Positions 13,336 to 24,228 of a DNA stretch of 32,529 nucleotides are shown here, piece by piece. The stretch comes from an uncultured Steroidobacteraceae bacterium (GTDB lineage Bacteria > Chloroflexota > Limnocylindria > QHBO01), in assembly GCA_964452225.1 (NCBI GenBank), contig CAYVLM010000001.1, positions 11,810 through 44,338 on the forward strand, given 5' to 3'. The notes under the pieces are model-generated. The model was not told the DNA's origin and made no database searches. It saw only the letters and a program-made list of their open reading frames with translations. The position numbers were made by a program, and so were the translations under genes. Position 1 is the stretch's first letter. Every line of letters begins with the position of its first letter.

Positions 13336-14112
13336 TCAACCCCCCGGCATGGTCCTCGACGACGCCTGGAACGCCGTGGCGCCGAGCGACGACGGCTGTC
13401 CCGGCCCGTTGCAGGGTGGAACGAGGATCCCGCCCGTGGCAGGCGTCAGCGGGACGTCGGTGCTGTCCCCGGGCAGGCGGAGGGTCATGGAGAGCGGTGA
13501 TCTCGGCGTCGACTGGCACCAGTTGCTCCAGTGGATGCCCATCTCGATCACGACCCTGGACATCACCACGACGGTGGTCCGGGGAGCGGTCGCCGTCGCC
13601 ACCACGTTCCCGTTGGCGTCCCGCAGCTCCAGCGTCGCGCTTCCGTCGATCGTGCAGCGGTTCAGCGAGGTGACGCCGCGGGCCAGCACCGTGGTCCCGG
13701 TCGAGCCGGCGGCGCCACCCCAGGCATCGGTCGACCACGCGAGGTCCGCGGCACGGCAGGCCGACGTCGCCGCGGCGCTCGGTGGAGTCGTCGGGGTGGC
13801 CGCAACGGTTGCCACCTGCGACGACGCAGCGGTCGACGCGGGGGCCGACACGGCGGCCGACGGCGAGGGCCCTCCCGTGCCCGCACCGGCCGGGCTCCCC
13901 CCGCCACGCACCAGCATCACGGCCACCGCCGTCCCGGCCACCACGGCGGCCGACAGCGCCGCCAGGCGACCGATCCGCAGCAGCGTCCGCCCCCCACCCT
14001 CGAGTCCTCGGTGCGCCCGGTCAAGGGCCGCAGGCAACCGCCGCGGCAGGTAGCCCTCCTCGCGGGGTCCTGACACCCGGAGCAGGTCTTCGAGACGATC
14101 GTGGTCATTCAT
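13336..14112 (-). CDS. Putative membrane anti-sigma factor with extracytoplasmic DUF4232-like Cys-containing domain
   Basis: ATGA overlap with the ECF sigma gene. It has a roughly 40-aa cytoplasmic head, one TM helix (LAALSAAVVAGTAVAVMLV), an Ala/Ser/Thr/Pro linker, then C..ADL...NRC.IDG...L.L.D.NG...C...PPC, the pattern seen in DUF4232. The longer ORF to 14469 is rejected because it overlaps the sigma gene and is Arg-rich. Confidence 0.65.
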   Translation of the reverse strand: MNDHDRLEDLLRVSGPREEGYLPRRLPAALDRAHRGLEGGGRTLLRIGRLAALSAAVVAGTAVAVMLVRGGGSPAGAGTGGPSPSAAVSAPASTAASSQVATVAATPTTPPSAAATSACRAADLAWSTDAWGGAAGSTGTTVLARGVTSLNRCTIDGSATLELRDANGNVVATATAPRTTVVVMSRVVIEMGIHWSNWCQSTPRSPLSMTLRLPGDSTDVPLTPATGGILVPPCNGPGQPSSLGATAFQASSRTMPGG

Positions 14113-14657
14113 CGGAATCCCTCCTCGCCGAGCTCGTCCCGCAGGGTGTCGAGAGCCCGACTCACGTGGCTTCGGGCCGACACGGGGGCGATGCCCAGCA
14201 CGGCGCCGATCTCCCCGTAGGGGAGGTCGGCTCGATAGCGCAGGTAGACGGCGAGCCGCTGCCGCTCCGGCAGGCGCTCGACCGCGTCCCACACCGCGAT
14301 CGCGGCGTCGCGGTCGACCCGGGTCGTCTCCGGCCCGGGGGCCAGCCGCGCGGCGAGCCCCTGGACTCGCCGGCGCCAGCGATGCTGGTCCATGCAGATC
14401 CGGTAGAGCGTCCGGAAGAGCCACGGCTCGGGACTGCTCACCGTCGCGCCGGCGTCCAGGGCCGCCCACAGGCGAAGGAGCGCTTCCTGCGTCGCGTCGC
14501 TCGCCTCCTCCGGTGCAAGACCAAGGTGGCGCGCGAAGCCGTACATCTCGGCACCCCGCCGCTCATGCAGGTCGGCGACGGTCGCACGATCGGCGTCCGT
14601 CGTCGCCTCGGCCCGTCTCGGGAGCTCGGCGCGCAGGGTCTCGGGTGTGGTCATCAC
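14109..14657 (-). CDS. ECF-type RNA polymerase sigma-70 family factor
   Basis: Region 2 (ATQEALLRLW..., LFRTLYRICMDQHRWRRR) and region 4 HTH (PERQRLAVYLRYRADLPYGEIGAVLGIAPVSARSHVSRAL). Confidence 0.9.
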   Translation of the reverse strand: MMTTPETLRAELPRRAEATTDADRATVADLHERRGAEMYGFARHLGLAPEEASDATQEALLRLWAALDAGATVSSPEPWLFRTLYRICMDQHRWRRRVQGLAARLAPGPETTRVDRDAAIAVWDAVERLPERQRLAVYLRYRADLPYGEIGAVLGIAPVSARSHVSRALDTLRDELGEEGFR

Positions 14658-14714
14658 ATGGGCATCGACGCCCGGGCGGAACGAAACGTTGAACGATCCG
14701 CCGCCAGGGCCGCG

Positions 14715-16628
14715 CTACAGCCCGATGCCCGCCTCCTTCTCGGCGCTCACCGCCTCCGCGACCAGGAACTGCTGCTGGTAGAGGCGGGCGTAGAGGCCCT
14801 CGTGGTGCAGCAGCTCGGCATGGGTTCCCCGCTCCACGATCCGTCCGCGCTCGAAGACGCAGATGAGGTCGGCACGGAGGATCGTGGAGAGCCGATGTGC
14901 GATGGCGATGGTGGTGCGGCCCTCCATCAGGCGCGCCAGGGCGCCCTGGATCAGGCGCTCGCTGACCGTGTCGAGGGCCGAGGTCGCCTCGTCGAGGATC
15001 AGGATGCGCGGATTCTTGAGGAGGACGCGGGCGATGGCGATTCGCTGCTTCTCTCCGCCGGACAGCTTGTAGCCGCGCTCACCGACGACCGTCTCGTATC
15101 CGTCGGGCAGCTCGAGCACCCGGTCATGGATCGCGGCAGCGCGGGCCGCCGCCTCGATCTCCGCCATCGTCGCGTCGGGCCGGGCGTAGCGCAGGTTCTC
15201 CAGGACCGTGTTGTGGAAGAGGTACGTCTCCTGGGTGACGACGCCGACCTCCCGGCCGAGCGACTCCAGCCGGATTCCACGCACGTCGATGCCGTCGATC
15301 AGGACGGCGCCGGCGGTGACGTCGTAGAGGCGCGGGATCAGGTACGTCGTCGTGGTCTTGCCGGCCCCCGAGGGGCCCACCAGGGCGACCAGCTGGCCGG
15401 GGGCCGCGGTGAACTCGATCTCGTCGAGCTCGAACGGGCGGATCGCCACCTCCGTGCGGTCGCCCCCGGCCGCCGCGGCGCGAGCCGCCAGCTGCGTGGC
15501 GCTGGCCGGATAGCTGAAGCGGACCCGATCGAAGCGGACCGCGCCACGGAGCGTGCCGGGCTCGAGGGTCACCGCCCCCGGCGCATCGGTGATCTCGTGC
15601 GGCATCTCGAGGTACTCGAAGATCCGGTCGAAGAGCGCCAGCGCACCCTGGATCTCGATCTGGACGTTCAGCATCTGGCCCAGGGGGAAGAAGATCCGGC
15701 TCTGGAGCGTGGTGAAGGCCACGATGGTGCCGATGCTGATGCGCGTGTCGCCACCGATGATCAGCGTGCCGGCCAGCATGTAGACGAGGGCCGGCATGAT
15801 CGAGAAGAACGTCCCGATCAGGGCGAAGAACCAGCGGCCGAGCATCTGCTGCCGGATCTGGAGCCCCGACAGCCGAGCCGACTCCGCGGTGAAGCGGTCG
15901 ATGGAGGTCCGCTGCTGGCCGAATGTCTTCGAGAGCAGGATCCCCGAGACGGAGAGCGACTCCTCGGTGATGGCGCTCACCTCGGCAAGCGACTCCTGGG
16001 TCAGGGTCGACAGCCGCCGGCGGACCCTGCCGACCCGGTACGTGATGAAGGCGAACACCGGCAGCATTCCCATCGAGAGGGCGGTGAGCCGCCAGTCCAG
16101 GACGAGCATGGCGATCACCGTGCTGACCACCGTCGCCAGGTTCGCGAGCAGCCCCGAGGCCGTGTCGGTCAGCACCGACTGCACGCCGTTCACGTCGTTG
16201 CCGATGCGGCTCTGGATCTCGCCGGTGCGCGTCTCGGTGAAGAACCGGAGCGGCATCCACTGCAGGTGGCTGTAGAGCGCCACCCGCAGGTCGTTCATGA
16301 CGCTCTGCCCAACGTAGTTCGAGAGGAACGACTGCCCGACGCCGATGAGGCTGGAGATGACCGGCAGGACGATCATCAGGCCGGTCTCCAGGTAGAGCAC
16401 GCCAAGGTCGCGCGGCCCGGTGAGGTCGTCGATGACGAGCTTGAGCAGGATCGGGTTGATGACGCCGATGCCGCTCGTCACGAGGATCGCGATCGCGATC
16501 ACCGCCAGCCGGCCGCGGTACGGCGCGAAGAACCCCACGATACGGGCCAGGGTCCGCCGACCGCTCCCCGGCCGTCGCTGGAGGTTGGGTTCCGGGCCGC
16601 CCCAGTGCCCCCGGCGGCCGCGCGTCAT
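14715..16628 (-). CDS. ABC exporter, fused permease/ATPase (MsbA/multidrug type)
   Basis: Six-TM N-terminal half. Walker A GPSGAGKTT, signature LSGGEKQRIAIAR, Walker B ILILDEATSALD and H-loop IAHRL. Confidence 0.93.
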   Translation of the reverse strand: MTRGRRGHWGGPEPNLQRRPGSGRRTLARIVGFFAPYRGRLAVIAIAILVTSGIGVINPILLKLVIDDLTGPRDLGVLYLETGLMIVLPVISSLIGVGQSFLSNYVGQSVMNDLRVALYSHLQWMPLRFFTETRTGEIQSRIGNDVNGVQSVLTDTASGLLANLATVVSTVIAMLVLDWRLTALSMGMLPVFAFITYRVGRVRRRLSTLTQESLAEVSAITEESLSVSGILLSKTFGQQRTSIDRFTAESARLSGLQIRQQMLGRWFFALIGTFFSIMPALVYMLAGTLIIGGDTRISIGTIVAFTTLQSRIFFPLGQMLNVQIEIQGALALFDRIFEYLEMPHEITDAPGAVTLEPGTLRGAVRFDRVRFSYPASATQLAARAAAAGGDRTEVAIRPFELDEIEFTAAPGQLVALVGPSGAGKTTTTYLIPRLYDVTAGAVLIDGIDVRGIRLESLGREVGVVTQETYLFHNTVLENLRYARPDATMAEIEAAARAAAIHDRVLELPDGYETVVGERGYKLSGGEKQRIAIARVLLKNPRILILDEATSALDTVSERLIQGALARLMEGRTTIAIAHRLSTILRADLICVFERGRIVERGTHAELLHHEGLYARLYQQQFLVAEAVSAEKEAGIGL

Positions 16629-16643
16629 CGCGACACCATCGGC

Positions 16644-17384
16644 TCAGGCGAGCAGGATCGAGAGGAATGCCTGGGCAGCCTCCAGCCCGACCTCGGCCCC
16701 CGCCTCGCGGACCCGATCCCGCACCCGCTGCTCGGTCGCGTCCCAGTCGGGAAGCTGGCTCGCGTGGCAGCGCAGCGCTCGGAGCGCGACGTCGAGCCGG
16801 TCGGCGACGTCAACCCACAGGTTCGGGTGGTCCGCCCCCGTGATGAGCACCTGGCGGACCTTCCACGGCTCGAGGCCCTCGTCCAGCAGCTCGGGGAAGT
16901 TCAGCCGGTCGCGGGCCGCGGGGTACACGGCGGCCATCGTCGCCTCCCCCGTCGCCAGGTGGTCGGGGTGCGCCATGAACGGGTTGCCGTCGACGCGGCG
17001 CTGGGGGTTCTGGGCAATCACCAGGTCCGGGCGGTACCGGCGGATCTGACGGACGATGTCGCGCCGGAGGTCGAGCGACGGGGTCAGGTAGCCGTCCGGG
17101 TAGCCGAAATGCACGATCTCGCGGACGCCGAGCACGTCGGCGGCCGCGCGCTGCTCGGCGATCCGGGTGGCGGCGAGCATCGCGGGAGTGACCGCGGGAT
17201 CGTCGGTGCCCTTGCTGCCGTCCGTCGTGACGACGTAGTCGACGCGGGCCCCGAGTCCCACGAGGTGCGCGATCGTGGCGGCTGCTCCGAACTCGGCATC
17301 GTCGGGATGGCTGAAGATGGCGAGCACGCGCTCGATGGGCTCGATCAGTGTCTGGCGCTCGGACTCGGTCATGTGGTTGCGCAT
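16644..17384 (-). CDS. PIG-L (LmbE-like) family deacetylase, second paralogue
   Basis: VLAIFSHPDDAEFGAA and HPDHLATGEA motifs. Start is uncertain: ATG 17384 or 17372 is preferred over the longest ORF (17456), which would leave only 13 nt before divergent csoR. Confidence 0.8.
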   Translation of the reverse strand: MRNHMTESERQTLIEPIERVLAIFSHPDDAEFGAAATIAHLVGLGARVDYVVTTDGSKGTDDPAVTPAMLAATRIAEQRAAADVLGVREIVHFGYPDGYLTPSLDLRRDIVRQIRRYRPDLVIAQNPQRRVDGNPFMAHPDHLATGEATMAAVYPAARDRLNFPELLDEGLEPWKVRQVLITGADHPNLWVDVADRLDVALRALRCHASQLPDWDATEQRVRDRVREAGAEVGLEAAQAFLSILLA

Positions 17385-17430
17385 GGTATCGCGATCCACG
17401 CGGGCGAGCGCACCCGGAGCCTTCGCAGCG

Positions 17431-17459
17431 TTGACCGTCGTCCGGGCGCGCCGCATACT
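17431..17459 (+). promoter_or_regulatory. Candidate promoter TTGACC-N17-CATACT for a leaderless or near-leaderless csoR transcript
   Basis: The -35 TTGACC is at 17431-17436, the spacer is 17 nt, and the -10 CATACT is at 17454-17459. The csoR ATG lies 10 nt downstream and no SD is present. Confidence 0.4.
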
Positions 17460-17470
17460 ACCCCCGGGTA
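17459..17470. promoter_or_regulatory. CsoR-type operator-like GC-rich pseudo-palindrome TACCC-CC-GGGTA
   Basis: TACCCCCGGGTA lies between the candidate -10 and the csoR ATG. It has the same TACCC...GGGTA architecture as described CsoR operators. Confidence 0.45.
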
Positions 17471-17868
17471 TGCAACCAGCCGATGAGCGAGCGCTCCACT
17501 TCCGCCACAGCTACACGAAGGACCGCCGCGACCTCCTGAACCGCCTCAAGCGGATCGAGGGCCAGGTCCGCGGCATCCGCCGCCTGGTCGAGGGTGAGGC
17601 GTACTGCCTGGACATCCTCCAGCAGGTCGAGGCAATGACGGCGGCCGCCGACCAGGTCGGGCTCCTGCTGCTCGAGGACCACATCGACGGCTGTCTCGCC
17701 CACGCGGTCGCCACGGGGGAGGGGGAGCCCTACCTCAAGGAGGTCATGGCCGTCGTGCGGCGTGCCATGGGACGGCGGCCGGGTCGCCGCGCGTCGGGTC
17801 GGGCAAGAGGAGGGGAAACTGATGGGAGTGCCGCAGGGGGGAACCACGGCACTCCCACGGCAGTGTAG
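17470..17868 (+). CDS. csoR: CsoR/RcnR-family metal-sensing transcriptional repressor, Cu(I)-type ligand set
   Basis: DLLNRLKRIEGQVRGIRRLVEGEAYCLDILQQV...EDHIDGC. The C...H-x3-C fingerprint matches Cu-sensing CsoR. A basic, Gly-rich C-terminal tail is atypical. Confidence 0.88.
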   Translation: MQPADERALHFRHSYTKDRRDLLNRLKRIEGQVRGIRRLVEGEAYCLDILQQVEAMTAAADQVGLLLLEDHIDGCLAHAVATGEGEPYLKEVMAVVRRAMGRRPGRRASGRARGGETDGSAAGGNHGTPTAV

Positions 17869-17888: not shown

Positions 17889-20735
17889 CTACTCCCCGAA
17901 CATCGTCAGCTGTTCGCCGCCCCGCTCGATGAGCGGATCGAGCCCCAGGACCGGCTCCAGCCAGTCGAGGGAGGCCCCTTCCCGGGCGAACAGGGTTCGC
18001 AGATGCTGCCACTTGAGGAAGTGCCAGTTCTGCCGCTCGATCTCGCTCCGCAGCCACGGGGACCGCTCGAGCTTGAGCCGCACCAGCTCGCTGCGCTCTG
18101 CGGGAAACAGGAGAATCCGGGCCTGCTGGTCCGTTGGCGGGATGGCCCGGCCCCGCTGCAGCACCGCCTCGCCGAGCATGGCGGTCCATTCGACCTCCAG
18201 GAGGAACGCGAACCGGTTGCGGATGTACCAGAGGGCGTCGACGGCGCCAAGCTGCTCCGCCGGGGCGTGGACGATCAACGGCAGGTAGGCGCGTCGTTCG
18301 TCCTCCGCCAGCCAGTCGCCCAGGGTTCGGCCGTCCAGCTGCTTTCCCTGCTCACGGCGGCTGATCCACACCCGCAACCCCAGCCGATGGCCGTAGTCGG
18401 CAAGGAGCGCGAGGATCGCGGTGTGGTCCGCGAACCGCGAGCCGAGGTCGTCCTCCGTCCGTAGCTGGCCCTGCTCCCCCGTCCGCGCATACGCCGCCAG
18501 GCATGCCCTCACCAACTCCTCGTCCGGAGCCTGCAGGCCCGGGAAGAGCCGGTAGATGCGCTCGAGGAATCCGGCCTCGTCGAGCCGCCCCGCCGTCGAG
18601 AGGATGGAGTACGTCGCCCACTCCACGCGGTCGGCGAGCGGCTGCTCGGCGATCTCGGGGTCGCGCAGCCACCACGACGGGCGATCGGGCTCGCCGAGCC
18701 TGACCAGCTCGGGATGGTCGTCACGCCAGAGCTCTTCCCGGAGCAGCGACGCGAGCAGCGTGCTGCCGCGGCTCGAGGTGTCGGCCCGTTCGTCGGCCTG
18801 GCCGTCCTCGCCGGCCTCCGGTGAGGCGTCCGCATCTCCCTCCGCATCGGCACCGGGCAGTGCGGCGGCGCGCGTGCGGGCCACCCGGCCCAGGAGGCCC
18901 GACCGCTGAAGCTCCAGGAGCACCGCGGCGGCGACCCGCGTGAGCCCGGCCGGTTCGCCGCGGTCTCTCAGCAGGCCGACCACGGCCCGCGACACGCTGG
19001 AAGCCAGCTCCGGGTACGTCAGGTGACCGTGCTCCGCACCAAGCTGGAGGGGACGAGCGCCGACGGCCGACCGCAGCCGGTCCTCTGCCGACGGCTTGCG
19101 GAAGTGAAGGGCAACGCCGTCACCGGACCGGCGTGACTCGCGGTGCACGAGTCCGGCCAGGTCGAGGCCGGCGGCCGCACCGGCGACGGCGACGGCGAGC
19201 ATCCGGTCGGGGTCGTCACCATCAAGGAGCACGTTGAACCAGCCGCCCGGGCGCAGCGCGCCGGCCGCGGATGCCATCGCGTGGCGCAGGGCCGTCGCCT
19301 CGGCCAGATCGATCGCCGCGGCAGCGGTGCCGAAGAGCGGCTCCAGGCGGAGCGTCTCCGCGGCCTCACGACCGATGAGCCACGCCGTGGCCAGATACTC
19401 GAAGCTCAGCTCGTCCACCGACGCCGGAGGTGGCGGAGTCCCCAGCACAAGGTCGATTCCCTCCGTCGGAAGGTACTGGCCGGCCACGGCGGGCCTGGTG
19501 CGGACCCACAGCACGTTGGCGGCCCCGATGCCGCCGAGATCGTCGAAGTCCGTGGCGAAGCGGGCGCCCCGTCGCTCGCGCCCCAGCGCCGCTATCGCCG
19601 TCCGCACGTCGCGGAAGGACGCCTCGAAGAGGCGCCAGACGTTCACCTCTCGCTGGTGTCGCGACGCGGGCTGGCGAACATGCCCGGCGGTGATGCGCAG
19701 CGACGCGACCCGGCCGGGATATCCGTTCAGGCGGCTCGCGGGCAGCAGGCAGGCCGCGAGGGCAAGGCGGAAGATGGCCGACAGCGCCGGTTCGCGCATC
19801 TCCGCCTCGATCTTGGCGGCGATCGTCTGCAGCGCGTAGAGGTTGCGCGGGGTGTAGAGGGCGAGAACCTCGTCCACGAGGTCCCGACGACCGTCGAGCA
19901 CCGGGAATCGCTCGCGAAGCTGCTGGACGTGCGGCCCCTCTCTCACCTCGGCGACGGCCTGCGGGGACGGCGGGTCGGGATGCACGGTCGACTGGAACCG
20001 GCGGGCATCCAGGTTGGTGGGAGGATCCGGGCTCACCGGCGGCGGAGGCGGCGGCCCGCCGGGCTCGCCGAGAGGCGGCTCACCCTCGTAGCCGGATGGT
20101 CCTCCCGTCAGCCCGACTGGCGCGGGCGGGAGCTCCTCGTCGCCTTCCGTCGCGTCGGACGGTGGCTCGGCCTCGGCGGCCGGCGACGCGTCGATGCCCA
20201 GCTTGGCGAGGTCCGATGCCTCGATCGGCGCGACGCGCTCCGCAGGCCCCCCGACGCTGATGTCACAGCTCGGGCAGCGGTAGACCTTCCTTCCCGGAGC
20301 GTCGCCGTCGCGGGGCCAGATGAACTGCTCGCCGACGACGGGACGGCGGCACGCCGCACAGCGGGTCGCGTAGAGCTCCTCGATGTGCTGGCGCAGCGGG
20401 ACGTCCACTCGCTTGGAGCCTGCCAGCTGGGTGAAGGCAGCATCCAGGACCGACGCGTCGGGCGCGAGGAGGAACGCCTGTGCCGCCAGCTGAGCGAAGG
20501 GGCTCGGATCGGCGGCGATGGCCCGCATCCCGTTCGCGACGGCGCGGCGCGCAGTCCAGCCGGTGCCGGCCCATGGATCGAGAACGGTGTCCCCCGGCGA
20601 GGCGAAGGCGGTGAGCTCCGCATCGAGCAGGTTGTCCGCGGGCGACGGGAAGTACCGCTCCAGGAGCGCGAGGCCGGGGAGACGTCGGGGAAGGACGACG
20701 TGGTCCAGGCTCCTCCGTTCGGCGGCCTCGCTCAT
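17889..20735 (-). CDS. 948-aa multidomain protein, function unknown. Domains: SAM-methyltransferase-like fold with inserted Zn ribbon (COG1743-like), Pro-rich insertion, degenerate motif IV, helical/wH-like middle, nuclease-like C-terminal domain.
   Basis: Motif I VLDPWAGTGWT (res 51-61). Zn ribbon CAAC...CPSC (126-157). DLVLGTPPPPASVDELSFEYLATAWL (428-453) parallels the DPPY...LSDFFYVWL block of Zn-ribbon adenine methylases. C-terminal VDALWY...FAFLLEVEWT. AGGAG SD overlaps the stop of the upstream gene. The CDS itself is solid (high GC3); the function is not. Confidence 0.8.
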   Translation of the reverse strand: MSEAAERRSLDHVVLPRRLPGLALLERYFPSPADNLLDAELTAFASPGDTVLDPWAGTGWTARRAVANGMRAIAADPSPFAQLAAQAFLLAPDASVLDAAFTQLAGSKRVDVPLRQHIEELYATRCAACRRPVVGEQFIWPRDGDAPGRKVYRCPSCDISVGGPAERVAPIEASDLAKLGIDASPAAEAEPPSDATEGDEELPPAPVGLTGGPSGYEGEPPLGEPGGPPPPPPVSPDPPTNLDARRFQSTVHPDPPSPQAVAEVREGPHVQQLRERFPVLDGRRDLVDEVLALYTPRNLYALQTIAAKIEAEMREPALSAIFRLALAACLLPASRLNGYPGRVASLRITAGHVRQPASRHQREVNVWRLFEASFRDVRTAIAALGRERRGARFATDFDDLGGIGAANVLWVRTRPAVAGQYLPTEGIDLVLGTPPPPASVDELSFEYLATAWLIGREAAETLRLEPLFGTAAAAIDLAEATALRHAMASAAGALRPGGWFNVLLDGDDPDRMLAVAVAGAAAGLDLAGLVHRESRRSGDGVALHFRKPSAEDRLRSAVGARPLQLGAEHGHLTYPELASSVSRAVVGLLRDRGEPAGLTRVAAAVLLELQRSGLLGRVARTRAAALPGADAEGDADASPEAGEDGQADERADTSSRGSTLLASLLREELWRDDHPELVRLGEPDRPSWWLRDPEIAEQPLADRVEWATYSILSTAGRLDEAGFLERIYRLFPGLQAPDEELVRACLAAYARTGEQGQLRTEDDLGSRFADHTAILALLADYGHRLGLRVWISRREQGKQLDGRTLGDWLAEDERRAYLPLIVHAPAEQLGAVDALWYIRNRFAFLLEVEWTAMLGEAVLQRGRAIPPTDQQARILLFPAERSELVRLKLERSPWLRSEIERQNWHFLKWQHLRTLFAREGASLDWLEPVLGLDPLIERGGEQLTMFGE

Positions 20736-20741
20736 CGGCTC

Positions 20742-21581
20742 CTACGGTTCTTCGAGCAGCTCTTCCTCGAGCTCGGGCTCGGCAGAGTATTCGGGGAGGC
20801 TGGTGTCGAGCTCCTCGACCTCCTCCGTCTCCTCCTCGAGCTCCTCGCTCTCCTCCTCGTCATCGTACCGGAGCGGCGACCCCTTGAGGTACGGTCTGAC
20901 GTCACTCGGGCGGCCGCTCGTGTTCCCCGGGAACGAGACCTTGCCGAAGTTGGCGGGGTGCGCGAAGGTCTCGCGGACCATCACCCGGATCTCGTCGCGG
21001 GCGACGATCGTGATGGCCGCCTCGTACCGGTTGCCCCCGGCCATCAGCTTCACCAGCCGCGCACCGATGCGGGGCTCGACCTGGCCGATCTCGTCGTCGC
21101 GAACGAAGGCCATCAGGTGATCCCCGTCCGGCTTCAGCGCAACCTGGTCGCCCGGGGAGAGCGACGCCAGGCTATCCCGGCCGGCCAGGTTGATGAGGCG
21201 CGCATGGCCGGTCTTGCCCATCTCCTCGATGAAGAGGGCGGCCGGCGCCTTCTCGGGCTTGCCGTCACTCGCCGCTGCCGCGCGGGCGGCCTTCTGGGTG
21301 CCGGAGAGGAGTCGAAGGCGCTCCACGTTGCGCTCCGCGATCCGGTTGGTCGCGTCGCGCGCCAGCGCCTGCTCGTAGGCCTCGAGCGCCTCCCCGTGAC
21401 GGCCGAGCTCGGCGAGAGCCTTACCGAGGCGGTTGTACGCATCGGTGTCCGGCCCGAGCTCGAGGAGCTCGCGGTTGGCCGTGACCGCGCTGTCCCAGTC
21501 GCCGCGCGTCGCCAGATCGATCGCCCGGTCTGCAAGCTGACGCCGCTGACGGTTGGCGGCGTCCATCTCCCCAATGGTCAT
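20742..21581 (-). CDS. TPR-repeat protein with HIRAN-like central domain and poly-acidic C-terminal tail (function unknown)
   Basis: Two TPRs (WDSAVTANRELLELGPDTDAYNRLGKALAELGRHGEALEAYEQALARD). Central L.PGDQVALKPDGDHLMAFVRDDEIGQVEPRIGARLVKLMAGGNRYEAAI. Tail DDEEESEELEEETEEVEELD...EEELLEEP. ATG 21581 has GGGAG 6 nt upstream; the longest ORF reaches 21668. Confidence 0.8.
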   Translation of the reverse strand: MTIGEMDAANRQRRQLADRAIDLATRGDWDSAVTANRELLELGPDTDAYNRLGKALAELGRHGEALEAYEQALARDATNRIAERNVERLRLLSGTQKAARAAAASDGKPEKAPAALFIEEMGKTGHARLINLAGRDSLASLSPGDQVALKPDGDHLMAFVRDDEIGQVEPRIGARLVKLMAGGNRYEAAITIVARDEIRVMVRETFAHPANFGKVSFPGNTSGRPSDVRPYLKGSPLRYDDEEESEELEEETEEVEELDTSLPEYSAEPELEEELLEEP

Positions 21582-21658
21582 CGTCTGCTCCCGTCTCGGG
21601 GTCGTCTCACGAGGTAACCAAATGCCCTCGGCACGGGCGCCCCGGCCAAAGGCGCCTT

Positions 21659-21687
21659 GTTGTATCACCGCCCTCGTGGCCTGTCAA
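21659..21687 (-). promoter_or_regulatory. Candidate promoter TTGACA-N17-TACAAC upstream of the TPR/methyltransferase-like operon
   Basis: On the minus strand, TTGACA is at 21687-21682, the spacer is 17 nt, and TACAAC is at 21664-21659. The -35 is perfect but the -10 lacks the terminal T. Confidence 0.3.
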
Positions 21688-21706: not shown

Positions 21707-22483
21707 TCAGGGGCGATACATGAGGAGCGCCACCAGAAGCCCGAGCACCGCGAGGCTCCCGAACTCGACGACCACGGCCCGCGCGCTGGCGCCACGATCC
21801 AGCGCCTCGGCGGCACCCCCCCACGCGTAGAAGGCCAGGGCCAGGATCGCCGGTCCCACCAGACCGGGCAACGCCAGCAGGTCCAGGGCGAGGGCCACCT
21901 GGCCGATGGCGAGCGCGTGAAGCAGCGACTGGCCCACCGCGTGGACTCCGCCCCGGCCGCGCAGCTCCGCAGAGCGCAAAGCCGCGAGGAACGACACGAG
22001 CACCACCAGGAGCATCGGCGGCGGCCATCCATTGTTGCCGAAGACCGCGTCGACACCCGCCGCCATGGCGAAGACGACGGCGGTGAGCACCAGGTCCAGC
22101 AGGGTCCGCTCGAGCGCGACCGGTTCGCCACGGATCTCGAGGACCAGCGCCCCCCACAGGAGCACGGCCAGCGGAGGCACCCCGAGGAGGCTCGCGCCGC
22201 CGGGCACCAACCGGCCCACCAGCGTGGCCGCGACGCCCGCGATCGCGAGCGTCGTGTAGCGGGCAAGGCCGAGCCCGGGCTTGGCCGGACCAATGAGCGC
22301 CACGGCGCCGAGCCCCCCGACGCCGAGCTCCACCGCGATCGCGATGGCCAGGCCCAGCGGACCGGAAAGCCATCCTGCCGCCGCGACCACCGCGAGCAGG
22401 ATCGCAAGCGGAATGCTCCATGGGTTGGCGACGTGCAGCCGGCTGGCGGGTGCACGGCCGATCGATCGAAGGCGGAGGATCAT
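21707..22483 (-). CDS. Polytopic integral membrane protein (about 8 TM helices), function unknown
   Basis: This is the only one of three overlapping open minus frames with hydrophobic-helix composition and high GC3. ATGA start/stop overlap with polX (22480-22483). Confidence 0.7.
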   Translation of the reverse strand: MILRLRSIGRAPASRLHVANPWSIPLAILLAVVAAAGWLSGPLGLAIAIAVELGVGGLGAVALIGPAKPGLGLARYTTLAIAGVAATLVGRLVPGGASLLGVPPLAVLLWGALVLEIRGEPVALERTLLDLVLTAVVFAMAAGVDAVFGNNGWPPPMLLVVLVSFLAALRSAELRGRGGVHAVGQSLLHALAIGQVALALDLLALPGLVGPAILALAFYAWGGAAEALDRGASARAVVVEFGSLAVLGLLVALLMYRP

Positions 22484-24228
22484 CGGCGGTCCAGGAGGCC
22501 CGCGGCGTCGCGCGTGTTCGCCACGTCATCGGCCGTGAGCCACGCACGACGCGCCATGGAGACCGCGTAGTCGAGCTGGGCGAGCTCCTCGGTTCGGTGG
22601 GCGTCACTGGCCACCACGAGCCTGGCGCCCGCCCGCGCGGCCGCGCGGGCAAGGTGATCGTCGAGATCAAGTCGCGGGCTGCCGTTCATCTCGAGGAGAG
22701 TACCTGTTCGGGCGGCGGCCGCGAAGACCGTCGGCCAGTCCAGCGTCAGCGGGTCCCGCCGGTTCACGATCCGACCGGTGGGGTGGGCGACGACGTCGAC
22801 GTGCGGGTTCTCGATCGCGGCCAGCGCCCGGCGGGTCAGCTGCTCCGTCGGCTGTCCGCGGCCGGTGTGGATGCTGGCCACCACCCAGTCGAAGCGCGCA
22901 AGCAGCTCGTCGGGATAGTCCAGGCTGGCGTCGGCACGGATCTCCATCTCCGTCCCGTGCAGGATGCGAAACGGCGCCAGGGCCGCGTTGAGGCGCGCGA
23001 TCTCCATCCGCTGCTCCTCGACCCGCTCGGGCGACAGACCGCGCGCGATGCCCAGCGACGGCGAGTGGTCGGTGAGGACCAGGTATTCGCGGCCGCGGGA
23101 CCTGGCCGCGCGGGCCATCGCCTCGATCGAGTCCACGCCGTCCGACCAGTCGGAGTGGACATGGGTGTCGCCCCGCACCTGGTCGGGACGCAGCAGATCA
23201 GGCAGCGCTCCGGCCGCAGCCGCCTCGATCTCGCCGTCGTCCTCGCGCAGCTCCGGGGGAATCCATGCCAGCCCGAGCCGCTCGTACACCTCCGCCTCCT
23301 CCGCGGCCAGGAGCAGCTCGCCGGTCTCCATGACCCGGAATCCCTTCTCGCTGAGCGAGAGGCCGATGTCGAGCGCGCGTCCGCGAAGGGCCACGTTGTG
23401 GGCTGCGCTGCCCGTGAAGTGCACGAGATGCGTCCCCCACGCGGCCGGGCGACAGAGCATGAGGTCCACCTGGGGGCCGTCGCGGAGGACGATGCTCGAC
23501 TTGTCGCTCCCGGCGCTCAGCACGCGATTCACCTGCGGCAGACGCGTCAGCCGCTCGACCAGCGCTCCGGGTTCGGTCGCGGCGGCGAGCAGATCCAGGT
23601 CGCCGATGGTGGCCCGCCGGCGTCGCAGGGAGCCTGCCGCCTCGATGCGCTGTACGCCGCGGACCCTGCGGAGCTGCTCCAGAAGGCCCGCCACGAGCGC
23701 GTCGGCGTCGTGCAGCAGGAGGCGAGCGCTGCGCTGCTCGATGCGGGCAATGCCCGCCAGGATGTTCTCCTCGGTCCGCGACGAGAGGCCCTTGAGCCCG
23801 CGAAGGCGACCGTCAGAGGCGGCGGCGCGCAGCTCCTCGACGGACGCGATCCCCAGCTCGCCGTGCAGGAGCTTCACGGTGCGCGGCCCGACGCCCGGGA
23901 TGCGCAGCATGTCGAGCAGGCCGGACGGAACCTGGGCCTGCAGCCGCTCGTGGTACTCGAGGCGTCCGGTGCGCGCGAGCTCCGACAGCTTGGACGAGAG
24001 GGCGGCCCCGGCTCCGGGGATCCGCGGCGGGTCGCCCGCCCGGTACCGGGCCGCGACATCCTCGGGCCAGCGCTCGACGGCATCGGCGACGCGACGGTAG
24101 GCCACGGCCTTGTAGACGACCTCGCCGGTGATCTCGAGCATGTCCGCGATCTCGTTGAAGATCCGGGCCAGCTCGCCGTTGCTGATGACGGGGTTCGCGG
24201 AACCCGGTGCGCTGCGGGGGCGGGGCAT
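22480..24228 (-). CDS. polX: Family X DNA polymerase with C-terminal PHP 3'-5' exonuclease/phosphoesterase domain
   Basis: N-terminal NGELARIFNEIADMLEI...YKAVAYRRVA (8-kDa/HhH). Catalytic GSLRRRRATIGDLDLL plus QVDLM. PHP motifs GDTHVHSDWSDG, LTDHS and SDAH. Confidence 0.95.
   Translation of the reverse strand: MPRPRSAPGSANPVISNGELARIFNEIADMLEITGEVVYKAVAYRRVADAVERWPEDVAARYRAGDPPRIPGAGAALSSKLSELARTGRLEYHERLQAQVPSGLLDMLRIPGVGPRTVKLLHGELGIASVEELRAAASDGRLRGLKGLSSRTEENILAGIARIEQRSARLLLHDADALVAGLLEQLRRVRGVQRIEAAGSLRRRRATIGDLDLLAAATEPGALVERLTRLPQVNRVLSAGSDKSSIVLRDGPQVDLMLCRPAAWGTHLVHFTGSAAHNVALRGRALDIGLSLSEKGFRVMETGELLLAAEEAEVYERLGLAWIPPELREDDGEIEAAAAGALPDLLRPDQVRGDTHVHSDWSDGVDSIEAMARAARSRGREYLVLTDHSPSLGIARGLSPERVEEQRMEIARLNAALAPFRILHGTEMEIRADASLDYPDELLARFDWVVASIHTGRGQPTEQLTRRALAAIENPHVDVVAHPTGRIVNRRDPLTLDWPTVFAAAARTGTLLEMNGSPRLDLDDHLARAAARAGARLVVASDAHRTEELAQLDYAVSMARRAWLTADDVANTRDAAGLLDRR

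Follow-up and report, generated by a model that had tools for sequence, protein, structure and literature searches.

The mismatch endonuclease NucS/EndoMS of Actinobacteria and Archaea is a clamp-dependent PD-(D/E)xK enzyme of housekeeping repair, which combines a recognition module with a C-terminal clamp-binding peptide. The peptides by which bacterial proteins bind the beta sliding clamp follow the pentapeptide consensus QL[S/D]LF. BamHI uses D...ExE, a variant of the PD-(D/E)xK motif, and in the type IIG/IIL, MmeI-like enzymes a methyltransferase fold and a PD-(D/E)xK nuclease are found on one chain. The HIRAN domain binds free 3′-OH DNA ends. Here we describe a strongly conserved two-gene operon of soil Chloroflexota from a Limnocylindria-type genome, located in a window of 32,529 nucleotides (nt) of contig CAYVLM010000001.1; all coordinates refer to this whole window, and both genes are on the minus strand. 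The genes encode a large protein of 948 amino acids (aa) with a degenerate methyltransferase half, a nuclease-like domain and a clamp-type motif at its C-terminus, and a small protein of 279 aa with a tetratricopeptide repeat (TPR) domain, a barrel which is possibly HIRAN-like and an acidic tail.

The reading that we favour is a clamp-linked housekeeping role of this pair in DNA repair or replication and not in defence, and we give it roughly an even chance. An earlier sequence-only reading of the same DNA had likewise suggested that it could be a repair or DNA-end-processing module rather than a defence island, and the housekeeping DNA-metabolic context as well as the dead methylase are in line with this suggestion.

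Domain make-up of the large protein

An exhaustive search for relatives of the large protein found 1381, of which 200 have E ≤ 1e-30. Its homologues are 64-99% identical and the distant full-length relatives 22-43% identical. Two groups recur in the following, a clade of ~900-1000-aa proteins to which the window protein belongs and a short clade of 750-870 aa from Dehalococcoidia/Anaerolineae-type metagenome-assembled genomes (MAGs). The architecture was read from an alignment (A3) of 30 diverse family members.

The pentapeptide QLTMF close to the C-terminus (Table 1) agrees with the beta-clamp-binding pentapeptide of bacteria by its sequence, its position and its context. We counted the pattern Q[LIM]x[LM][FL] within the last 30 residues and found it in all 120 close homologues, in 54 of 64 full-length representatives and in 53 of the 62 homologues which a second profile search retrieved; in most of them it is followed by 0-2 residues. 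Among the outgroup methyltransferases, which share the N-terminal module only, it is present in 1 of 21. The tail which bears the motif (residues 932-948) is disordered in the AlphaFold2 (AF2) model, the predicted local distance difference test (pLDDT) being below 50. This motif is absent from the sequence-only reading and new here, and the predicted recruitment by the clamp is the single most informative point about function which we infer.

Upstream of this tail the AF2 model has a core of the order alpha-beta-beta-beta-alpha-beta with pLDDT 80-93 (helix 764-784, strands 788-791, 834-838 and 842-848, helix 856-864, strand 871-877), in which D833 is placed at the start of strand 2 and E847-V-E849 at the end of strand 3. 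D833 does not vary, position 847 is taken by either E or D, and E849 shows a conservation of at least 90%; the lysine of PD-(D/E)xK is replaced by Glu (ExE). The methyltransferase half and this domain are separated by winged-helix segments. When 16 C-terminal segments were scanned against Pfam, only weak winged-helix matches (Stork_head, 5 members) and NERD (E 0.2) were returned. In the precomputed Pfam annotation, in which the window protein has no exact record and the 99%-identical P0001 stood in for it, the domain PF27126 (NmeDI_C) is marked as weak on P0001 and is unmarked, that is stronger, on the distant active relative P0459. R.NmeDI (PMC2095814), a type II restriction endonuclease, has NmeDI_C as its C-terminal domain. 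Several short-clade members of the alignment (P0281, P0290, P0297, P0301, P0353, P0358) are without the acidic residues of the nuclease-like domain; the motif is replaced by FVVQWT, FVVISS, FAFHQT, FALSDT or FALSST and the C-terminal clamp-type motif is retained, which suggests a non-catalytic role of these members.

Sequence matches of the large protein to known proteins are confined to residues ~20-100, the region of methyltransferase motif I, and a sequence search of the PDB with the single protein and with family profiles returned methyltransferase motif I/IV regions only. Within the lineage the motif I sequence DPWAGTGWT is invariant. With 16.9 bits the Pfam family PF01555 stays below its gathering score of 26.7 on the large protein, and it is matched by 18 of the 30 diverse members (best E 1.8e-21). 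The most distant members (P0352, P0377, P0387 and P0390) have canonical LDPFxGSGVT and FTDPPY motifs; from these motifs together with the PF01555 matches it follows that the family is a circularly permuted methyltransferase, with motif I before motif IV. Among the 30 members, three of the four cysteines of the Zn ribbon (C126, C129 and C154) never vary and the fourth, C157, hardly does. The Pro-rich insertion is limited to Limnocylindria-type sequences in this alignment and contains the conserved short motifs LPPAPVGL and GGPPPP.

Most Chloroflexota members have lost GxG and/or DPPY. The window protein keeps WAGTG and has TPPPP at motif IV (GTPPPPAS), a position which differs even among 70%-identical relatives (GSVTDAAT, GALPPPAN). 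Since the loop is not conserved even at this level of identity, canonical methyl transfer is very unlikely. The AF2 model of the large protein is poor in its N-terminal half and good from ~480 to 930; a Foldseek search of the model against the PDB gave only weak methyltransferase matches, because the N-terminal half is poorly modelled (pLDDT <50). The sequence-only reading had described a methyltransferase fold for S-adenosylmethionine (SAM) with a CxxC...CxxC ribbon, a Pro-rich insertion, a mutated catalytic motif and a C-terminal domain with a D...ExE pattern. All of these are borne out by the alignment of motif I with M.RsrI and by the family alignment, in which the insertion turned out to be lineage-specific.

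A separate group of 1200-1350-aa DNA methyltransferases which contain a helix-turn-helix (P0468-P0479, e.g., P0475 of Burkholderia cepacia with 1347 aa) shares just the permuted methyltransferase and Zn-ribbon half and is without a C-terminal clamp-type motif. The best PADLOC match of the window protein is an MTase_II profile of 1344 positions, a length close to that of this group.

Genomic context, operon structure and the small protein

Genes for relatives of the large protein are present in 250 GTDB species-representative genomes, and the family spans several Chloroflexota lineages. The best 80 of these 250 are all Limnocylindria-type Chloroflexota MAGs with 64-81% identity, and both proteins are 64-86% identical across the homologues listed. 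In Limnocylindria the order polX - membrane open reading frame (ORF) - TPR gene - large gene - (CsoR) - PIG-L - ABC is conserved, and in all 75 loci having upstream DNA the TPR gene, i.e., the gene of the small protein, lies immediately upstream of the large gene. Because this whole region is syntenic, the polX linkage is uninformative in Limnocylindria and the synteny by itself tells little about functional linkage.

A sister clade, in which the large protein is 34-44% and the small one 46-50% identical, has different flanks. There the TPR gene is upstream of the large gene in three of three loci with upstream DNA and immediately adjacent in two; in L084 a 181-aa ORF is called on the opposite strand between the two genes. 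The polX gene is found upstream in two of the three loci, and the third has a hipBA-like insertion. Real support for a link between the two genes, and weaker support for one with polX, comes from this clade. The pairing assumed by the sequence-only reading holds in Limnocylindria and the sister clade and breaks down in the short clade, in which no adjacent TPR partner was found in ~80 metagenome loci; its link to polX is modest, gaining weight from the two sister-clade loci with their different flanks and not from Limnocylindria. The TPR partner is restricted to the ~900-1000-aa clade. Two further observations concern the sister clade. In L168 (1158-2608) a hipBA-like toxin-antitoxin pair (HTH_3 and HipA) lies immediately upstream of the TPR gene, the place taken by polX in two other loci of this clade. 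A DUF885 gene always follows the large gene (L084, L085, L167 and L168, duplicated in L168) and replaces the CsoR/PIG-L/ABC block of Limnocylindria.

For the short clade the neighbouring genes were clustered and the cluster representatives scanned with Pfam. In 16 loci recA is found in divergent orientation 84-733 nt upstream of the large-gene homologue, with recX (15 loci) and the RNase Y gene rny (14 loci) after recA and dnaG further upstream in 10 of the recA-linked loci. Seven loci have a divergent polA ~600-800 nt upstream, five have tandem DnaC/IstB-like AAA+ genes which are co-directional and 98-164 nt upstream, and downstream of the homologue there is uvrA in two loci and uvrD in one. 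Altogether 32 of the 62 loci having 3 kb or more of flank contain one or several of these DNA-metabolism genes, which amounts to a handful of independent associations. Different DNA-metabolism partners in different clades are what one would expect of a replication or repair factor, which the family may be. Around the homologues no defence islands or mobile elements were seen apart from one Y1-transposase-like gene, several kb off in L082.

A perfect Gram-positive-type SOS box (GAAC-N4-GTTC) is present in the spacer between recA and the homologue in 12 of the 16 recA-linked loci (L101, L103, L104, L111, L113, L115-L117, L133, L139, L141 and L158), 73-82 nt before the ATG of the homologue. In the main recA-linked group the box stands beside back-to-back extended -10 promoters, TGGTATAAT toward recA and TG(G/A)TATACT toward the homologue, and its geometry would fit recA repression. 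In the whole window no such box was found.

In the window the stop codon TAG of the small gene (20742-20744) and the ATG of the large gene (20733-20735) are separated by 6 nt, and the Shine-Dalgarno sequence of the large gene overlaps this stop codon. A GTG-extended frame of the small gene up to 21668 is possible and would run into the promoter; due to this overlap and since the homologues begin with MT(I/L)GE it is an unlikely start. A simple consensus promoter scan did not list the operon promoter, because its -10 hexamer lacks T6 and ends in C. The same arrangement, CGTTGACA-N17-(TGn)TACAA, is present upstream of the TPR gene in 75 of 75 related Limnocylindria-type loci, 90-125 nt before the ATG, and the flanking bases vary among these loci; it is therefore a phylogenetically footprinted promoter. 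For this putative promoter, conservation in all 75 loci is far stronger evidence than a consensus match. As judged from these signals the two genes form a dedicated, translationally coupled operon with its own promoter. All three signals had been noted in the sequence-only reading, namely the gap, the promoter and the AGGAG which overlaps the stop codon; they were confirmed, the promoter exactly where it had been placed. The 5′ leader of the TPR gene is ~70 nt long here. Most of the 75 loci have a conserved leader block, ACAAGGCGCCyTTyGGCCGG, right after the -10 hexamer; an Rfam scan of the leader gave no match, and the leader may be structured or regulatory.

Homologues of the small protein are 69-100% identical. 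Three Pfam TPR models pass their cut-offs at residues 18-80 (TPR_2 with 35.0 bits against 27, TPR_1 with 34.3 against 27.8 and TPR_16 with 33.2 against 32.7). In the AF2 model, which was built on an alignment of 27 sequences, residues 3-102 are helical with pLDDT ~90 and the tail is disordered, and Foldseek against the PDB found TPR modules of the Hop/SGT/CHIP type. The following barrel matches 3k2y (lp_0118 of L. plantarum), which we take to be a HIRAN-family structure, with E 1.4e-3 and a TM score of 0.63 on the target. In BFVD the best match, with E 5.9e-4, is to a phage protein which bears the name 'HIRAN domain'; its root-mean-square deviation of 17 A over 203 columns is poor. Pfam HIRAN (PF08797) has no match in the small protein of the window and no significant match in nine homologous barrel segments (E 0.046 in one of them), and a PDB profile search with the barrel segment returned merely insignificant matches to mitochondrial IF3. 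A HIRAN-like barrel is plausible at the fold level and not established.

The acidic tail is nearly invariant in the 27 homologues, including its hydrophobic positions (...EEVEELDTSLPE[YF]S.EPELEEELLEEP), and remains acidic in the sister clade. This near-invariance over 40 residues argues for a specific interaction and not for a mere spacer. Both the two TPRs and the 40-residue poly-Glu/Asp tail of the sequence-only reading were recovered in this way; the ~90-aa HIRAN-like domain that it proposed is supported by the fold matches and not by Pfam.

The polX gene had been taken as the direct neighbour of the pair. It is in fact separated from it by a 258-aa multi-pass membrane ORF, the start of which overlaps the polX stop and which is apparently co-transcribed with polX. 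A Pfam scan of this ORF gave nothing; it is annotated as DUF5656 in the precomputed annotation of a 99%-identical contig and is 42-66% identical across Limnocylindria-type loci. Other neighbours in the window are ordinary genes, those of a CsoR-type repressor, a PIG-L deacetylase, an ABC exporter, a CGNR regulator and MgtE/CorA-type proteins. As stated earlier for this DNA, there are no mobile-element genes around the operon and no GC shift, the base composition being ~70% G+C along the whole window without a break at the operon. The 1234-aa ORF at 13782-17486 of the plus strand, which lies antisense to the genes of the ABC transporter and of PIG-L, is not a gene but a high-GC shadow ORF.

Table 1. 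Positions of the operon, its signals and the encoded domains in the window
Feature	Position	Strand	Residues	Description or basis
Large gene	17889..20735	-	948 aa	ORF of pseudo-methyltransferase / Zn ribbon / winged helix / nuclease-like / clamp-motif protein
C-terminal QLTMF, beta-clamp-binding-type motif	17898..17912	-	942-946	2 residues from C-terminus; protein ends ...GGEQLTMFGE
PD-(D/E)xK-type nuclease-like domain	18012..18446	-	764-908 (D833, E847-V-E849, R881)	AF2 topology, conserved acidic residues
Degenerate catalytic motif IV (DLVLGTPPPPASV)	19416..19454	-	428-440	FTDPPY in same columns of distant relatives
Pro-rich disordered insertion	19941..20189	-	~183-265	AF2 pLDDT <50
CxxC...CxxC Zn ribbon	20265..20360	-	C126, C129, C154, C157	inserted after motif I in methyltransferase fold
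SAM-binding motif I (TVLDPWAGTGWT)	20553..20588	-	50-61	aligns with M.RsrI, TTHA0409, M.MboIIA, CcrM, M.PvuII
Shine-Dalgarno AGGAG of large gene	20739..20743	-		read directly; overlaps small-gene TAG
Small gene	20742..21581	-	279 aa (from ATG)	ORF of TPR / HIRAN-like barrel (plausible) / acidic-tail protein
Acidic tail (...DDEEESEELEEE.EEVEELDTSLPEYSAEPELEEELLEEP)	20745..20867	-	~239-279	Glu/Asp-rich; disordered in AF2
HIRAN-like barrel (plausible)	20967..21203	-	127-205	six strands and one helix; AF2 pLDDT ~77
TPR domain	21276..21575	-	3-102	two TPR motifs and capping helix; Pfam, AF2, Foldseek
5′ leader of TPR gene	21582-21658	-
Operon promoter	21659..21687	-		TTGACA (21682-21687), 17-nt spacer, extended -10 TG-A-TACAAC (21659-21667); read directly
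Membrane ORF	21707-22483	-	258 aa	multi-pass; between polX and TPR gene; start overlaps polX stop (ATGA)
polX	22480-24228

Possible function of the pair

The favoured reading builds on what was observed here about the domains and the state of their motifs, about conservation, about the structure of the operon and about the neighbouring genes. The identity of 64-86%, the occurrence in 250 species genomes and the syntenic housekeeping surroundings speak for it, as they indicate a core gene which is probably under purifying selection. According to this reading the large protein would descend from a single-chain methyltransferase-endonuclease whose methyltransferase half lost the catalytic motif. 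This half would now probably be a DNA-recognition module, possibly still binding SAM, and the C-terminal PD-(D/E)xK-type domain would be the source, present or past, of DNA cleavage. The QLTMF peptide would dock the large protein on the beta sliding clamp and it would therefore act where clamps are loaded, i.e., at replication forks, gaps and repair patches. The small protein would be a dedicated partner, kept stoichiometric with the large one through the coupling of the two genes; its TPR domain could bind a peptide, either from the large protein or from a different factor, and the acidic tail could regulate, mask or gate a DNA-binding surface. A possible order of events is that the clamp places the large protein at a primer-template junction or repair patch, that the nuclease-like domain then incises or trims the DNA, that the HIRAN-like barrel holds the free 3′ DNA end and that PolX finally fills the processed gap. 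This order is much less likely than the general clamp-linked statement.

Several points weigh against the favoured reading. Every mechanistic step, namely clamp binding, nuclease activity, 3′-end binding, complex formation and the order of events, is something that we infer. The NmeDI_C match on the window lineage is weak, and the PDB yielded nothing for the C-terminal domain, whether searched by sequence or by fold. The acidic residues of the EVE motif are lost in five of the 30 diverse family members, and cleavage therefore cannot be the universal function of the family. The N-terminal half of the large protein has a pLDDT below 50 in AF2. The HIRAN assignment comes from fold matches at E ~1e-3 and a model of pLDDT ~77, with Pfam HIRAN being non-significant. 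Half of the homologue loci have no DNA-metabolism neighbour, and several of the recA- and polA-linked loci are close mutual relatives and hence not independent. Finally, polX is separated from the operon by the membrane-protein gene and by the operon's own promoter.

The acidic tail and the tight coupling of the two genes could also be explained by a nuclease which is made together with its own inhibitor. The small protein would then be a DNA-mimic or immunity-type partner which silences a potentially toxic nuclease, and there would be no specific link to the clamp or to repair. The position of the small gene upstream, the 6-nt gap and the Shine-Dalgarno sequence over its stop codon agree with this, since translational coupling would get the inhibitor made first, and so do the near-invariance of the 40-residue tail and the strict co-occurrence of the partner with the large protein of the long clade. 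However, the short clade has the same nuclease-like domain with its D...ExE intact and lacks a partner gene next to it, this explanation accounts neither for the clamp-type motif nor for the DNA-metabolism neighbourhoods, and vertical inheritance as a core locus sets the pair apart from toxin-immunity cassettes. We therefore consider an inhibitor unlikely as the whole explanation; it could coexist with the clamp-linked role as a regulatory layer. We think it rather improbable that the locus is a restriction-modification or other anti-phage module, that is, a single-chain methyltransferase-endonuclease or its decaying remnant. Such a module would account for the combination of a methyltransferase with a domain of type II restriction endonucleases (NmeDI_C), for the weak PADLOC MTase_II matches and for the distant relatives which retain all catalytic methyltransferase motifs. 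But motif IV is lost here and in most Chloroflexota members, and without self-methylation an active restriction nuclease would be lethal. Moreover, 64-81% identity across 80 related loci, fixed synteny and surroundings without mobile genes, GC shift or defence-island neighbours do not suit defence, and a decaying remnant is not expected to be this conserved along 948 residues.

The least probable of the explanations, and in our view a very unlikely one, is a still-active DNA or RNA methyltransferase with a non-canonical catalytic loop, e.g., an orphan epigenetic methylase or one acting on ribosomal RNA (rRNA) or transfer RNA (tRNA). The motif I WAGTG and a downstream acidic residue (AADPSP) are invariant in the lineage, so that SAM binding may persist, two prolines of motif IV are nearly invariant family-wide, and distant relatives bear the JGI name 'RsmD'. 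Yet nothing beyond the generic SAM-binding region underlies this name, motif IV has neither its D/N/S nor its aromatic residue, its loop differs even among relatives of 70% identity, and the GxG of motif I is also lost in many Chloroflexota members (FCR...). Moreover, a DNA rather than an RNA substrate is indicated by the neighbouring genes as well as by the nuclease-like domain and the clamp-type tail.

A wider version of the clamp-linked reading is tentative and somewhat doubtful. Here the large protein would represent an unrecognised family of clamp-dependent nucleases for repair or replication surveillance in several Chloroflexota lineages, exapted from a methyltransferase-endonuclease fusion. 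One branch would have gained a dedicated HIRAN-type partner which captures 3′ ends and a polX polymerase which fills gaps, and would thereby form a new short-patch repair pathway. The dead methyltransferase would read a base or lesion and the nuclease would incise at clamp-marked sites.

If the clamp-linked role is true, several Chloroflexota lineages contain a clamp-tethered nuclease which is so far undescribed and has an inactivated DNA methyltransferase as its scaffold. It would be a new client of the bacterial sliding clamp and would show clearly how an enzyme of the restriction-modification type was domesticated to maintain the genome. It would also give a bacterial HIRAN-like protein its first cellular role and bacterial PolX a functional context. 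Mutations can be aimed precisely at the clamp motif, at the three acidic residues and at the acidic tail. Base-excision repair is reported to be eroded in Limnocylindraceae (PMC13212565), and the question which repair gap the family fills (cf. MutS/MutL/NucS) bears on this erosion.

Comparison with known systems

In NCBIfam, Pfam and PADLOC scans both proteins gave only TPR matches and the sub-threshold match at motif I. In PADLOC-DB v2 the large protein matches the generic MTase_II only (residues ~35-115, best E 8.6e-7) and a TPR match has E 0.012; system-specific component models were matched by neither protein. No description of the family was found in the literature (HIRAN/3K2Y, clamp-motif methyltransferases in Chloroflexi, Limnocylindria DNA repair). 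This agrees with the earlier statement that the pairing fits no named system.

Three assignments were rejected. The resemblance to the COG1743/DUF1156 methylases which the sequence-only reading had seen consists in the Cys4 ribbon and the large size and did not hold as a family relationship, as DUF1156 (PF06634) has no Pfam match in the large protein or the 30 family members and the domain is a permuted PF01555-type fold. An rRNA methylase was dismissed since the 'RsmD' label of the distant relatives rests on the generic SAM-binding region, and a mobile restriction-modification cassette since the locus is vertically inherited and syntenic and its catalytic motif is dead.

To the beta-class N6-adenine/N4-cytosine methyltransferases of PF01555 (M.RsrI, TTHA0409, M.MboIIA, CcrM, M.PvuII) the large protein can be aligned from an 'HxxxKPxxL'-like segment through motif I (~20-76) and, weakly and in the family profile, also in the motif IV region. 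These enzymes have the order IV...I, whereas the large protein has the order I...IV with a Zn ribbon after motif I and a dead motif IV, and it is 3-4 times longer owing to its added domains. The HIRAN proteins (HLTF as well as bacterial and phage proteins) resemble the small protein in the barrel of six strands and a helix, which matches 3k2y and the phage 'HIRAN domain' protein. In these proteins the domain is fused to a helicase or nuclease, whereas here the barrel carries an N-terminal TPR domain and a long acidic tail.

With R.NmeDI and type II PD-(D/E)xK endonucleases the C-terminal domain of the family has the NmeDI_C match and the alpha-beta-beta-beta-alpha-beta core in common. In contrast to R.NmeDI, the window protein is without a cognate active methylase or restriction context, and the domain stands behind a pseudo-methyltransferase and is followed by a clamp-type tail. 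The single-chain arrangement of the type IIG/IIL, MmeI-like enzymes is shared by the large protein, and its active distant relatives P0352, P0377, P0387, P0390 and P0459 may be of this general kind. However, the large protein has the methyltransferase first and the nuclease last, that is, the reverse order, and differs further by its lost catalysis, vertical inheritance and clamp- or repair-related neighbours. The nearest functional analogue, in the sense of 'works like' only, is NucS/EndoMS, to which no sequence relationship was detected; the plan of a recognition module, a PD-(D/E)xK domain and a clamp peptide is the same, and here the recognition module would be a dead methyltransferase with a Zn ribbon. 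The kinds of systems which our reading draws on are accordingly two, the fusion enzymes of the restriction-modification type and the clamp-tethered repair nucleases.

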